From: Eledone cirrhosa
Taxonomy: Eukaryota
Length of the DNA: 64,000 nt
Reading direction: 5' to 3'
Assembly: GCA_964016885.1 (NCBI GenBank)
Contig: OZ024741.1
Location: forward strand, 154,566,001-154,630,000
Within the stretch, counting starts at the first letter, position 1, and every line of letters starts with the position of its first letter. The notes beneath the pieces were generated by a model. That model was not told the DNA's origin. It did not search any database and saw nothing but the letters and a program-made list of their open reading frames with translations. Of this stretch, positions 14,374 to 61,168 are shown piece by piece. Position numbers and translations under genes: made by a program.

Positions 14374-14622
14374 TATCAATGATATTAATAAATGGAAACT
14401 ATATTTACAAAACCATATTTATTCTATTATATATATTTCAAGGGTACCAAAACTTGGTACGCTCTCATCAGATAAAATACATACCAAAGTTTTGGTACTC
14501 TTGAAATATATATAATAGAATAAATATGGTTTTGTAAATATAGTTAACATTTATTAATATCATTGATATTATACTCCAGAAAACCTGTCGAGTGCTACGA
14601 ACAAGTTAAATATCCCTTTGCT
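14374..14622 (+). mobile_element. Fold-back PLE-end module, family A, with HHR on the minus arm (about 14419-14479)
   Basis: Arms about 14374-14455 and 14490-14568; TATTTTAT-CTGATGA-GAGCGTACCAA/TTGGTACCCTT-GAAA-TATATA-TA-ATAGAATA; tail hairpin 14573-14593. Confidence 0.75.
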
Positions 14623-14634
14623 TATATATATATT

Positions 14635-14812
14635 ATCATCATCATCATCATCATCATCATCATCATCATCGATTAACGTCTTTCTTCCACGCCAGCATGG
14701 GTTAGACGGGCCCTATTTAGATGCAAGTTGTGTCAGGTGACTGTGTCTTGTTCATATAGGGGTGTTTCTGGCTGTTTTTCTATGGCCGGATGCCCTTCCT
14801 AACACCAACCAC
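14635..14812 (-). mobile_element. RTE-related 3' end with (GAT)n tail
   Basis: (CAT)n followed by ggatgcccttcctaacaccaaccac, shared with the RTE 3' UTR at about 16370. Confidence 0.7.
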
Positions 14813-15091
14813 ATTGACATATATATATTGTTTTTTTGTTTTTTTTTATCATGCTGAGTAACAACCTCACTCATTTCTTGCTATCCTCTCCCAACCTCCT
14901 TATCATCTATTGCACCATTTATGTGATAAATTTTTGATGTAATTTTTTATGACATTTTATGACATTATGTGCGTCATGTATTGTATGTTTTTCTATATAA
15001 CGCTGGCCTTGGGACCCCCCTACTGGTCTTTTAACCTTGTTCTGGTGACTGAGCTTGATGGACCCTGCAACCTCTGATATACTCTTGTTAA

Positions 15092-15141
15092 TAGGCTCTG
15101 ATGATTCCTGCCATAGGGTATGGATGAAACACTGTTAGCTA
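15092..15141 (+). ncRNA. Type I hammerhead ribozyme in a PLE-end module (module about 14830-15300)
   Basis: GGCT-CTGATGA-TTCCTGCC..GGTATGGAT-GAAA-CACTG-TT-AGCT, then AATAAA; tail hairpin 15193-15225; TA at 15298. Confidence 0.7.
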
Positions 15142-58206: not shown

Positions 58207-58587
58207 ATATATATAAATATATATATATATATATATATATATATATATATATATATATATATATATATATATATATATAAATATATATATATATATAAAT
58301 ATATATATAAATATATATATAAATATATATATAAATATATATATATATATAAATATATATATATATATATAAATATATATATATATATATATATAAATAT
58401 ATATAAATATATATATATATATATATAAATATATATATATATATATATATAAATATATTATATATATATATATATAAATATATATATATATAAATATATT
58501 ATATATATATATATAAATATATTATATATATATATATAAATATATATATATATATATGTGTATATATATATGTATATATATATGTAT

Positions 58588-59386
58588 ATTGAGGGGGTTG
58601 CAGTCAGGCCAGATGTCAGGTGAAGTGTGGTCGACGAAGTTCTCTGACAGCCAGGCTTGAGTCCAATGTTGTCGCTGGAAACTTTGTCTGCATGACTCTG
58701 GGTACGTCTTTGGATGAGACAGCGAGCCACCTGTTGTTCTGGGAGTTGATCTTTTGGTCTTGGCAGAAGTTTTTCTCGTCAGAGAAAAACCACAGCATGT
58801 CTGGCTCCAGTGGGTGTTTCAACTTGTTGATCAGCTTCTTTGCGTGCTTCAATCGCTTTTCTTGCATCACCTTTGACAGAAATTGTCCTTTCCTCATCTT
58901 GTATGAAACGTAGCGAATGTCTGCATGTACCACCAGCCTAATGAGCTTTTCATCCACGCCTTTCTCCCTTGTAATGGCACGCATCGACTTGCTAGGTTCA
59001 TTGTTGATGATATCCTGAACTTCAGCGACGAACTCGGGCGTTCTAAAGGCGTCAGATCGTCGATCATGTGTTTTCCTCTCTGATGTTGCTTCATAGTCGA
59101 ATCCTGAATCTTCCAATTCCTATCTGACCTTTTCCACCATTCTCCTGCTGATGCTGAGAAAGTCTGAAATTTCCTTATTTATCCTGGCACGGATTCCAAG
59201 AAGAACTCAGGTGTCTCTTCCACAAATTTGGAGGTTCAAAATTATTCATAATCAATTATTCTGAAAATAAATAATGGAATTATAGTTAATGTTTTTATGA
59301 AGACAAGAGTGACAACGGAAGTAAAAAAAAATTTGCATAAAAACAGCAGTTGAAAATTGCGAACAAATATCGTCCACACCCAGTAT
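58588..59386 (-). mobile_element. Tc1/mariner (maT/DD37D-like) transposase remnant with one terminus and internal deletions
   Basis: WFFSDEKNFCQDQKINSQNNRWLA..TKFPA; TQAWLSENF..WPDCNPL in another frame; TA-flanked end CTGGGTGTGGACG. Confidence 0.8.
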
Positions 59387-60065
59387 ATATATGTATATAT
59401 ATATATATATATATATATATATATATATATATATATATATATATATATATGTATATATGTATATATGTATATATATATATATATGTATATATATATATAT
59501 ATGTATATATATATATGTATATATATATATATGTATATATATATATGTATATATATATATATGTATATATATATATATATGTATATATATATATGTATAT
59601 ATATATATATATGTATATATATATATATATGTATATATATATATGTATATATATATATGTATATATATATATGTATATATATATATGTATATATATATAT
59701 GTATATATATATATGTATATATATATATATGTATATATATATATGTATATATATATATGTATATATATATGTATATATATATATGTATATATATAGATGT
59801 ATATATATATAGATGTATATATATAGATGTATATATATAGATGTATATATATATATATGTATATATATATATATGTATATATATATATATGTATATATAT
59901 ATATATATATATATATATATATATATATATATATATATATATATATATATGTATATATATGTATATATATATATATGTATATATATATGTATATATATAT
60001 ATGTATATATATATATGTATATATATATATGTATATATATATATGTATATATATATATGTATATA

Positions 60066-61168
60066 TATGAAATATAAGAATCAAAGAACTGTTCAAAACA
60101 TTATTGTGCTTACAGCTGTTTCCTCCAAACCGAGGTTTGGATTCTTCGGAGCAATTTATTAATGCATGGACAGTTATATGACCTCCTTTTCAGCCGAGAG
60201 ACATACCAATACATATTCAAACATTGATACATATTCAAACATTGTGGGTCAACATTCATTACAGAATTTAGAGTGGCAGTACACACTTCGAGATTACATT
60301 TATATTAATAGGTACAATCAAAAATCAAAGATATAGGTTAAAGTACAACATGAAGATAAGTGGTTATATAGTGCAAATGTTATATGTGTGGCACGCATGT
60401 GCGTCTTGTTTATATAGTGTGGCAGAGAGATATGTGTGGTAGAGGCACTTAGGTAGGTAAATAAGAGTGTTAGATTGGTAGATCTGGTGGCAAAGTCTTT
60501 ATATGATTGATATAGTCTGTGTGTGGAGAAATATTATAAGCATTAAAGATAGTACATGAATTACTTGACATCCCTGCGCTGTGCATCTCCAATACTTATA
60601 ACACTTTTAATGCTTGCACTATCTTTAATGCTTATAATATCTCTCTGCCACACTATATAAACAAGACGCACATGCGTGCCACACATATAACATTTGCACT
60701 ATATAACCACTTATCTTCATGTTGTACTTTAACCTATATCTTTGATTTTTGATTGTACCTATTAATATAAATGTAATCTCGAAGTGTGTACTGCCACTCT
60801 AAATTCTGTAATGAATGTTGACCCACAATGTTTGAATATGTATCAATGTTTGAATATGTATTGGTATGTCTCTCGGCTGAAAAGGAGGTCATATAACTGT
60901 CCATGCATTAATAAATTGCTCCGAAGAATCCAAACCTCGGTTTGGAGGAAACAGCTGTAAGCACAATAATGTTTTGAACAGTTCTTTGATTCTTATATTT
61001 CATATAACTGCTCTGTAAATCATCTGATGTTTTTACATTGAGCTACTTAACTTACTGGTAATAAGGTAGTAATACATTACTGCCTACCACTATTTAGGGT
61101 GTGTGTAAAATACTTATAACTGCTTAAGGTTTTGTGTTTACATAACCATAAATAGTATAACTAATACT
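60066..61168 (+). mobile_element. Large fold-back PLE-end module: ~368-bp near-perfect arms, each with an HHR
   Basis: 60066-60433 is inverted relative to 60637-61005; TGCT-CCGAAGA-ATCCAAACC TC GGTTTGGAG-GAAA-CAGCTG-TA-AGCA (60917-60963); tail hairpin 61010-61043. Confidence 0.85.

Follow-up and report, generated by a model that had tools for sequence, protein, structure and literature searches.

In the genome of Eledone cirrhosa, copies of a group of retroelement modules end 3–9 nt short of either member of a pair of similar hairpins with a bulge, and comparison of the sequences makes it likely that these hairpins anchor the reverse transcriptase for the start of copying. The window analysed here is a 64,000-nucleotide stretch of contig OZ024741.1, in which a sequence-only reading had paired eight copy ends with a hairpin close by. 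Each pair was re-read on the sequence and all eight are real (Table 1). Offsets are given as the last base of the element relative to the first base of the hairpin, and ranges denote TA letters common to the flank. Two of the pairs mean something other than was proposed. The tandem F54 copy does end beside a hairpin, but that hairpin (54851) is hairpin 2 and the site is the long end, with the tail, rather than the short end; our own first idea that the 54851 hairpin was irrelevant was rejected for the same reason. The solo copy does end at the short site, but it is a separate relative and does not form the other arm of the insertion at 21765. The B19 pair marks a minor site, the mode for the family being -7 to -5.

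Table 1. Modules, hairpins and associated features in the window, with the copy end assigned to each hairpin.
Feature	Position	Strand	Copy end (offset)	Remarks
Module A14, fold-back element end	14368..14626	+		short end at left flank (equivalent to 14565-14569), tail to ~14626
Hairpin 1 of A14	14573..14593	+	14565-14569 (-8..-4)	ACTC, 3-bp inner stem, TC bulge, GAGT
Additional hairpin of this type	15193..15225	+		~105 nt before TA run; hammerhead-like core upstream
Module B19	19079..19379	+		palindrome 19079-19300 plus tail; short arm ends at minor site
Hammerhead-like motif of B19 (candidate)	19223..19272	+		CTGATGA, stem II, GAAA, palindromic stem III; upstream of short end
Hairpin 1 of B19	19315..19335	+	19300 (-15)	GCTC, TA bulge, GAGC
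Module H21, 3′ part of Hydra-clade element	21696..23604	-		endonuclease end, 3′ UTR, hairpin 1, tail to long end
Hairpin 1 of H21	21745..21765	-		
Sub-interval of H21	23182..23604	-		
Module C24	24362..24912	-		palindrome 24505-24912 plus tail to ~24365
Hairpin 1 of C24, long form	24420..24500	-	24505 (-5)	71 nt inside
Solo copy related to H21	25088..25429	-	25095, equivalent to 21772 (-7 from 21765)	79% identical; ends at short site
Further hairpin, long-end solo copy of A14/E52 group	45544..45563	-		
Module D46	46232..46878	-		insertion from a family with 540-bp tandem units; long end at 46232, inverted short arm up to 46878
Hairpin 1 of D46	46285..46309	-	46318-46321 (-12..-9)	family short end peaks at the same offset
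Further hairpin	47355..47376	+		~100 nt before TA run
Module E52	50103..52556	+		inverted short arm 50103-50388, then 3′ UTR, tail to 52556
Endonuclease C-terminal remnant in E52	50385-50570			
Hairpin 1 of E52	52470..52489	+	52466 (-4)	
Module F54	54455..55385	+		partial tandem of 539-bp non-coding unit; right end is the long end
Hammerhead-like core in F54 (candidate)	near 54467			
Hairpin 1 of F54	54771..54796	+		repeated at 55309-55334; absent from the sequence-only reading
Hairpin 2 of F54	54851..54866	+	55382, equivalent to 54842-54847 (-9..-4)	marks the long end
Module G61	60069..61170	+		inverted arms 60069-61006 plus tail of ~165 nt
Hairpin 1 of G61	61010..61043	+	61006 (-4)	

Copy ends and the doubled hairpin

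Across the genome, copy ends are not spread uniformly along the elements; they form two sharp peaks, both joined to (TA)n, as the sequence-only reading had anticipated. A random sample of 120 stretches of 10 kb (1.2 Mb), after removal of 875 matches to simple repeats within two of the references, yielded 60 long ends, 60 short ends and 12 others. Among TA-joined short ends, 132 of 151 lie at -9 to -3 of hairpin 1, and 61 of 65 long ends lie at the same distance from hairpin 2. A last copied base at -7 is possible at the modal junctions of 14 of the 15 family ends, the sole exception being the short end of D46, which peaks at -12 to -9 and uses the nearest TAT. The spacing is thus not rigid, because the D46 peak deviates from it, as do minor end sites at -12 to -18 in H21, B19 and D46. 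No long end falls at -2 to 0 of hairpin 2 and no short-end interval covers -2 to 0 of hairpin 1; two short ends were scored at +1 of hairpin 1. Of 212 short ends, 151 adjoin a TA run directly, as do 137 of 184 long ends, and most of the other ends shown reach a TA run within a few letters. The proposed TA micro-site just 5′ of the hairpin was borne out at the short end: an overlap of at least 2 nt of TA is found at modal junctions in 15/15 cases, against 0.50 expected per random position. In these figures C24 is represented by 7 copies, and A14 solely through the related E52 group.

For 100 fold-backs selected blind to the hairpin, with one arm ending in (TA)4 and the other arm continuing, a strict hairpin starts within -12 to +20 of the divergence point in 37, compared with 5, 1, 4, 1 and 1 in five equally wide control windows. 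Not every fold-back follows the rule, as the strict motif is absent from 33 of 46 fold-back sequence clusters; about 7 of these 33 hold near-matches by eye, and many others have short tails of 26–61 nt. Within the window, four fold-backs (62201-62634, 23590-24183, 7396-7541 and 41858-42565) lack this hairpin beyond the end of the arm and lie outside the class.

The hairpin follows the consensus RCTC-stem-TN bulge-GAGY and is doubled. The earlier account of a hairpin-marked end was therefore correct and incomplete, in that the long end follows the same rule with a second hairpin that had gone unrecognised. Six families have the second copy immediately beyond the long end and, where a gene follows, ahead of that gene; it stands 2–5 nt beyond the long junction in H21, a B19 relative, cl1, F54, D46, G61 and a C24 relative, and is degenerate in an A14 relative. 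Because the second hairpin sits just past the long end, the tail corresponds to the distance between the hairpins, 67–166 nt. The order along the element is hammerhead-like motif, end 1, hairpin 1, end 2, hairpin 2 and gene start; G61 copies at other loci have hairpin 2 and then the start of a reading frame after their long end. In F54 both tandem units contain the first hairpin, at which short ends form a separate peak, with 12 of 15 TA-joined short ends at -10 to -7.

Compact hairpins number 102 per 1.2 Mb, against 16 in shuffles. In 30 hairpin rows, hand-chosen partly on inner pairing and including several related families, the outer pair covaries (G-C in 16, A-T in 12) and is never G-U, a pattern that does not in itself demonstrate recognition as RNA rather than DNA, and the first bulge base is T in all 30. 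Shuffle results for the inner pairs are partly circular, because of this choice of rows and the relatedness of the families. In hairpin 2 of H21 and of the B19 relative the inner stem pairs weakly, with one pair followed by a mismatch.

The sequence-only reading had seen the two ends and missed that they are paired, one of each, within a single insertion. Head-to-head pairs, which comprise an inverted 5′-truncated copy with a one-sided extension, are long plus short in 77 of 85 classified cases, and in 61 of 67 once the tail-biased B19 set is removed; for G61 this holds for 8 of 9 pairs by script and for the ninth by eye. Four short-short and four long-long pairs were scored, several of which look by eye like subfamily or neighbour mix-ups, and two of which (L018 and L294) are perhaps genuine. 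Of the two arms, the tailed one is frequently the shorter, and in L032, L039 and L071 it stops at +7, +13 or 0 with no overlap with the other arm. Long arms stop at -25 to +30 of hairpin 1 in 11 of 60 cases, too few for a claim that the cDNA pauses there. A screen for re-copied terminal letters flagged 10 junctions, from which L237 was dropped as a CA run and L331 was counted apart as internal. At the other 8 (5 short, 3 long; about 2% of 396 ends) the final 4–13 letters of the element are copied a second time in tandem, likely a footprint of re-priming, which could also have come from later slippage beside TA runs. In L331 the re-copy is internal to the long arm, at the short site, and is not simply explained by a model with two starts. 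The tandem arrays of F54 and D46 read through both end sites, for up to six or more units.

Identity of the elements

The modules are the 3′ ends of Penelope-like retroelements, and belong to the Hydra clade wherever a gene can be checked. Their proteins carry an RWK motif near the N-terminus (KRMRWKAL in the H21-family frames L122 and L123, with RW[KR] also in cl1 and C24 relatives), a DKG motif changed to DKT (SDKTKNL in L122, L123 and L126; SDKTNNL in the E52-family copy L132) and, at the C-terminus, a GIY-YIG endonuclease with a CxCX5C linker (CSCRVKSEC in L133, CNCRNKSKC in L132), which is mutated in the window copy. The endonuclease is of the Hydra type, having no CCHH motif but CxxC and CxH around a conserved E and N. 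Pfam did not recognise the Hydra-type frames, and two weak capsid matches in a PDB sequence search were treated as chance. A candidate hammerhead core-like pattern lies upstream of hairpin 1 in five of the eight window families, and was seen by eye in L123; the best 150 of 323 Rfam rows contained no hammerhead family and no family for the hairpin, and held microRNA-like matches on TA repeats and palindromes and two tRNA-like matches. For F54, D46 and cl0 we infer membership of the Hydra clade from the common hairpin, because none of them is linked to a reading frame.

The endonucleases of the Neptune/Nematis clade have a CX2-5CxxC linker and a CCHH motif. Neptune had been our first guess and was discarded since both features are absent from the hairpin families checked. 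By eye, both are present in the window's other element (38880-39557), which has a 56-nt tail without a hairpin.

Start signals and alternative explanations

In the mechanism that we propose, the endonuclease would cut both strands of a (TA)n target, and each cut 3′ end would pair with a TA-rich RNA stretch of 2–5 nt, located some six nucleotides 5′ of a hairpin; a protein dimer would hold the hairpins, one per subunit. The window would be fixed by the hairpin, and the precise base within it by the closest TA. Two cDNAs from the two starts, joined head to head, would give a fold-back in which one arm carries the inter-hairpin stretch as its tail, and the one-sidedness of the tail would be explained because copying would start at either of the two hairpins. 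We advance a wider reading of the same sequences more tentatively. The twin RNA hairpin would be the start signal of the Hydra clade, each subunit of a reverse transcriptase/endonuclease dimer gripping one hairpin and measuring about six nucleotides to the first template base, so that both cut strands of the TA repeat prime at once on one RNA and the inter-hairpin distance becomes the tail. Occasional re-alignment of the primer would be a vestige of a telomerase-type repeat-addition cycle, and the 540-bp tandem units would be parasites reduced to the ribozyme and the hairpin pair.

The sequence-only reading had allowed for either a start or a nick, and for the short end a start appears to fit the data better. 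Were it a nick, a single cDNA would run from the long end and the GIY-YIG endonuclease would resolve the intermediate beside a hairpin read as DNA. This would suit the lack of G-U wobble in the outer pair, the attribution of the tail in PMC8557442 most likely to endonuclease-mediated resolution, and the need of the D. virilis endonuclease for tail sequence in cleavage, as related in PMC11167929. We nevertheless consider it unlikely, given that the long end has the identical geometry with a hairpin of its own and that letters are re-copied at both kinds of end; furthermore, one cDNA that folds back from the long end could give neither arms without overlap nor a short arm that exceeds the tailed arm in length.

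Somewhat less probable again is a role in RNA processing, whereby the hairpins would direct cleavage or termination and the resulting two RNA 3′ ends would be copied by ordinary target-primed reverse transcription. A signal downstream of the cut is geometrically possible, and RNA-seq read ends fall on the two start sites of the PAc element (PMC11167929); the in vitro starts in that work are, however, internal to intact RNA, the pairing of one short with one long end requires extra assumptions, and the F54 and D46 arrays read through both sites. The ends might instead reflect TA micro-homology or later rearrangement in TA-rich DNA, with the hairpin merely nearby for another job such as protein loading or translation. 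The TA overlap at every modal junction and the use of the nearest TAT by D46 accord with this, yet TA sites further upstream are almost never used: just 1 of 151 TA-joined short ends lies more than 18 nt upstream, though 28% of element positions offer a TA overlap of at least 3 nt. Moreover, the offset is retained across the whole range of hairpin spacings and between unalignable sequences, and the positions from -2 to 0 are avoided at both hairpins, which makes this the most improbable of the three alternatives.

Comparison with known systems

A tail and two internal start sites are already published (PMC11167929, PMC8557442). The twin hairpin was not found in the open-access literature searched on Penelope-like elements. 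The choice of start sites and the origin of mirrored one-tailed insertions were called unresolved in PMC8557442, and PMC11167929 gave part of the answer in vitro; start-site choice becomes testable through a short motif that covaries and keeps a nearly fixed offset at both ends, and the twin hairpin would provide a simple boundary-finding rule for a very abundant class of repeats.

The Hydra clade of C-terminal-endonuclease Penelope-like elements was described by Craig et al. 2021 (PMC8557442), and our elements share with it the RWK and DKT motifs, the CxCX5C linker without CCHH, a hammerhead motif (here a candidate), the (TA)n target, tandem and inverted insertions and the one-sided tail. The published tail length of 30–40 bp is not matched by the hairpin families, with their 67–166 nt; tails of 26–40 nt occur in clusters without the hairpin. 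No description of a hairpin, its doubling, a fixed offset or one-each pairing was found in the text of that paper, and ‘hairpin’ and ‘stem-loop’ have 0 occurrences in its main text. By eye, the Hydra-1_Ajap consensus in its file S7 starts with both hairpins, 61 nt apart, before the ATG, and the Hydra-2_Amil, Hydra-2_Ajap and Hydra-1_Crog consensi terminate in the hairpin.

PAc, a Poseidon-clade element of Anolis carolinensis, encodes a protein that in vitro cleaves and extends both strands and uses two internal starts, and that is a predicted dimer (Frangieh et al. 2024, PMC11167929). As here, the distance between the starts is the tail and the target is AT-rich. PAc differs in belonging to another clade and in starting inside an AC-rich stem-loop, at sites non-homologous to the cut DNA, whereas the TA overlap in our elements suggests short pairing; the text on PAc has no repeated downstream hairpin and no spacing rule. 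The non-coding head-to-tail units of F54 (539 bp) and D46 (540 bp), with their candidate hammerhead-like core, resemble non-LTR retrozymes, whose units each carry a type I hammerhead (bioRxiv 10.64898/2026.07.22.740005; PMC4209133). No named start signal for retrozymes was found in the bioRxiv text; F54 and D46 keep both hairpins and both end sites. The F54 and D46 units appear to derive from Penelope-like ends. Arrays of the F54 family reach at least six 539-bp units (L106, L107), and the candidate F54 core deviates at one base from the usual hammerhead sequence.

In L1 twin priming, cDNA synthesis on the element RNA is primed from the two cut ends of the target, which leaves the 5′ part inverted; priming begins at the poly(A) end, the second site varies and there is little overlap between the arms. 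Both sites in our elements are, in contrast, fixed, internal and hairpin-adjacent, and the arms usually overlap. Penelope-like elements are the closest mobile relatives of telomerase. The template boundaries of telomerase RNA and of the DRT10 non-coding RNA (bioRxiv 10.1101/2025.10.16.682844) offer a further parallel, as a related reverse transcriptase is placed on an internal template there by a stem-loop, and primers re-align at short letter repeats. That stem-loop sits 5′ of the template and signals where copying stops, whereas the hairpin here lies 3′ of the first copied base, and repeat addition, the normal product in those systems, has its counterpart here in re-copying as a rare slip.

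Twin hairpins and two element ends

The genome containing the window is 3.0 Gb in size. The window is dense in (TA)n runs and retroelement fragments, and the modules singled out by the sequence-only reading are the ends of fold-back or tandem elements with TA repeats on both flanks. All eight pairs in which that reading placed a copy end beside a bulged hairpin held when the sequence was re-read, with agreement within about two bases. The hairpin opens with RCTC, continues with an inner stem and a loop that differs greatly in length, and closes with a two-base bulge and GAGY. 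For the pair 55382/54851, in family F54 (families are labelled by approximate position in kb), the end does precede a hairpin, but this hairpin is the second one of F54, whose main short end precedes another hairpin, at 54771, that was overlooked in that reading.

Copies extending beyond the long end revealed a second GCTC...TN-GAGC hairpin 2–5 nt after the long junction in H21, D46, G61, F54, relatives of B19 and C24, and the further cluster cl1; in a relative of A14 it is degenerate. The two hairpins are 67, 76, 80, 83, 90 or 166 nt apart, and hairpin 2 sits just ahead of the gene start in copies that have a gene downstream. The traits found in the hairpin families are those by which PMC8557442 defines the Hydra clade of Penelope-like elements. 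The families with a readable gene are assigned to this clade on these diagnostic traits; F54, D46 and cluster cl0, with no linked reading frame, would belong to it by the shared hairpin. By eye, within the accessible supplement of PMC8557442, Hydra-1_Ajap starts with both hairpins, 61 nt apart, followed by ATG; Hydra-2_Amil, Hydra-2_Ajap and Hydra-1_Crog terminate in hairpin 1 and the tail (the stretch between the hairpins), and Hydra-1_Amil and Hydra-1_Obim have no clear hairpin match.

Further hairpins and other elements in the window
Position	Feature	Remarks
15193, 45563, 47355	Hairpins of the same kind	Three additional copies
21540-21670	End of another Penelope-like element	GIY-YIG at 19742-20104; back to back with H21 within one TA run; canonical-looking hammerhead near 21550
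30762-31279	Fold-back, probably a SINE pair	Each arm carries tRNA-like sequence (30854-30918 and 31147-31202 exceed the Rfam tRNA gathering score)
33676-37146	LINE-type ORF, 1156 aa, nearly intact	Endonuclease, RT, zf-RVT; second ORF upstream, 31724-33721
38471, 43366; also 47570, 54276	Ends of a non-Hydra Penelope-like element	Fixed short and long ends; 56-nt tail
54335-54457	Left end of the F54 insertion	Inverted 123-bp piece with a third end ~90 nt past hairpin 2 (equivalent 54941), seen among F54 loci in this insertion only
62201-62634	434-bp fold-back	One arm ends at TA; no hairpin after the other

Copy ends across the genome

In 120 random 10-kb stretches compared with eight references, after removal of 875 matches to simple repeats within two of them, 60 ends were long, 60 short and 12 other. 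This bears out the two alternative 3′ ends proposed from the sequence alone; ends concentrate at two sites rather than spreading uniformly. Among 177 copies, drawn from the best-scoring 30 loci per search, 73 stop just before the hairpin, 82 stop at the distant long end (a few slightly short of it), 22 F54 copies continue into the next tandem unit, and none ends between +3 and +45, counted from the first hairpin base. Three family queries comprised sequence upstream of the hairpin only; the B19 query took in the tail, which biases it to tailed copies. In five E52 loci (L036, L043, L046, L051, L056) the inner arm ends cluster at −180 to −195 of hairpin 1, a position that may mark the 5′ end of an RNA or point to a short master copy, and that may be biased by query length.

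Junction positions were compared over 396 ends from nine families, the B19 long end being placed by its relative's spacing. The modal junction interval contains −7 in 14 of 15 family ends, and D46 short ends peak at −12 to −9; per copy, 113/151 TA-joined short ends and 57/65 long ends are compatible with −7. A set of 30 hairpins, with each family and site represented once, served to assess conservation. All of them have T as the first base of the bulge; at the outer pair, 16 have G-C and 12 have A-T. Inner pairs 1–3 are paired in 29/30, 25/30 and 25/27, with several pair types; since inner pairing played some part in our choice of rows, and related families are included, the outer-pair covariation alone escapes circularity.

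The random sample also contained 237 inverted repeats; in 100 of them, one arm stops at TA and the other runs on. Counted from the point where the arms diverge, a strict hairpin starts at −12 to +20 in 37 of these 100 (control windows: 5, 1, 4, 1 and 1), or in 13 of 46 clusters. About seven further clusters are near-matches by eye, one carrying a compensatory GTTC/GAAC stem. The hairpin rule is a property of one element group and not of every fold-back, because the remaining clusters include some with 26–61 nt tails and no such hairpin. The RCTC-GAGY hairpin is likewise absent from the window's non-Hydra family, which also differs in the cysteine pattern of its endonuclease and whose ends recur in six random fold-backs. 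Short tails of 26–40 nt, some of them AC-rich, resemble the classical tail in several families, at L169, L153, L154, L174 and L222 (clusters 4, 6, 9, 12 and 16).

Origin of the paired arms

We consider it probable that hairpins position two separate starts. What was observed is where copies end, the doubling of the hairpin, the long-short pairing and the covariation. An endonuclease would cut both (TA)n strands, each cut 3′ end would prime about six nucleotides 5′ of a hairpin, and the two resulting cDNAs would join head to head; the protein bound to the hairpin, the priming and the dimer are what we infer. Among 95 head-to-head pairs, 77 combine a long and a short end, four are short+short, four long+long and ten unclassified; nine G61 pairs fetched separately were all long+short, eight as scored by script and one on reading by eye. 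The longer of the two arms may be the tailed or the untailed one, and a tailed arm can stop at +7, +13 or 0, leaving arms without overlap. A single cDNA that folds back from the long end cannot produce such arms, and two separately primed cDNAs can; the self-priming model of PMC3846280 may apply to other clades.

Resolution by an endonuclease at the hairpin, in a DNA form, appears unlikely. The last 4–13 element letters before the TA run are re-copied in tandem at 8/396 ends (five short, three long), five of the eight being among the 23 G61 ends. Across the 12 G61 copies spanning the tail there is one internal indel, in L331, where the short site carries a fourfold re-copy. This locus forms one G61 insertion with L329 and L330 (G000:C1:211715566-211724093), in which a 9-letter stutter is repeated at the short site of the short arm and also lies internally in the long arm; the upstream copy has no stutter. 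The re-copied junctions would fit an abortive start and re-alignment, by analogy with telomerase-type enzymes (bioRxiv 10.1101/2025.10.16.682844, in the part available), and argue for starts over nicks, although they are rare and L331 is not accounted for. RNA processing at both sites is, in our estimation, more doubtful still, and TA homology alone the least credible explanation. 

All 15 modal junctions have 2 nt or more of TA overlap (expected 0.50 per position) and 13/15 have 3 nt or more (expected 0.28), yet just 1/151 ends uses a TA site lying over 18 nt upstream. It seems that a hairpin defines the window and that TA pairing picks the exact base within it.

Relation to known systems

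The tail, the inverted copy and the TA target were already described in PMC8557442; PMC11167929 reports two internal start sites, finds both strands extended and predicts a dimer. A conserved doubled hairpin was not found in the literature searched, which mostly excluded subscription papers. In the PAc template printed in PMC11167929, a small UCUC/GAGA stem can be seen by eye at about +126 to +139 of the ORF, 8–15 nt beyond the reported start region 111–118, and could represent either a distant analogue or a coincidence. The twin-hairpin finding is a variation on an already known mechanism, and opens the origin of the tail to direct test.
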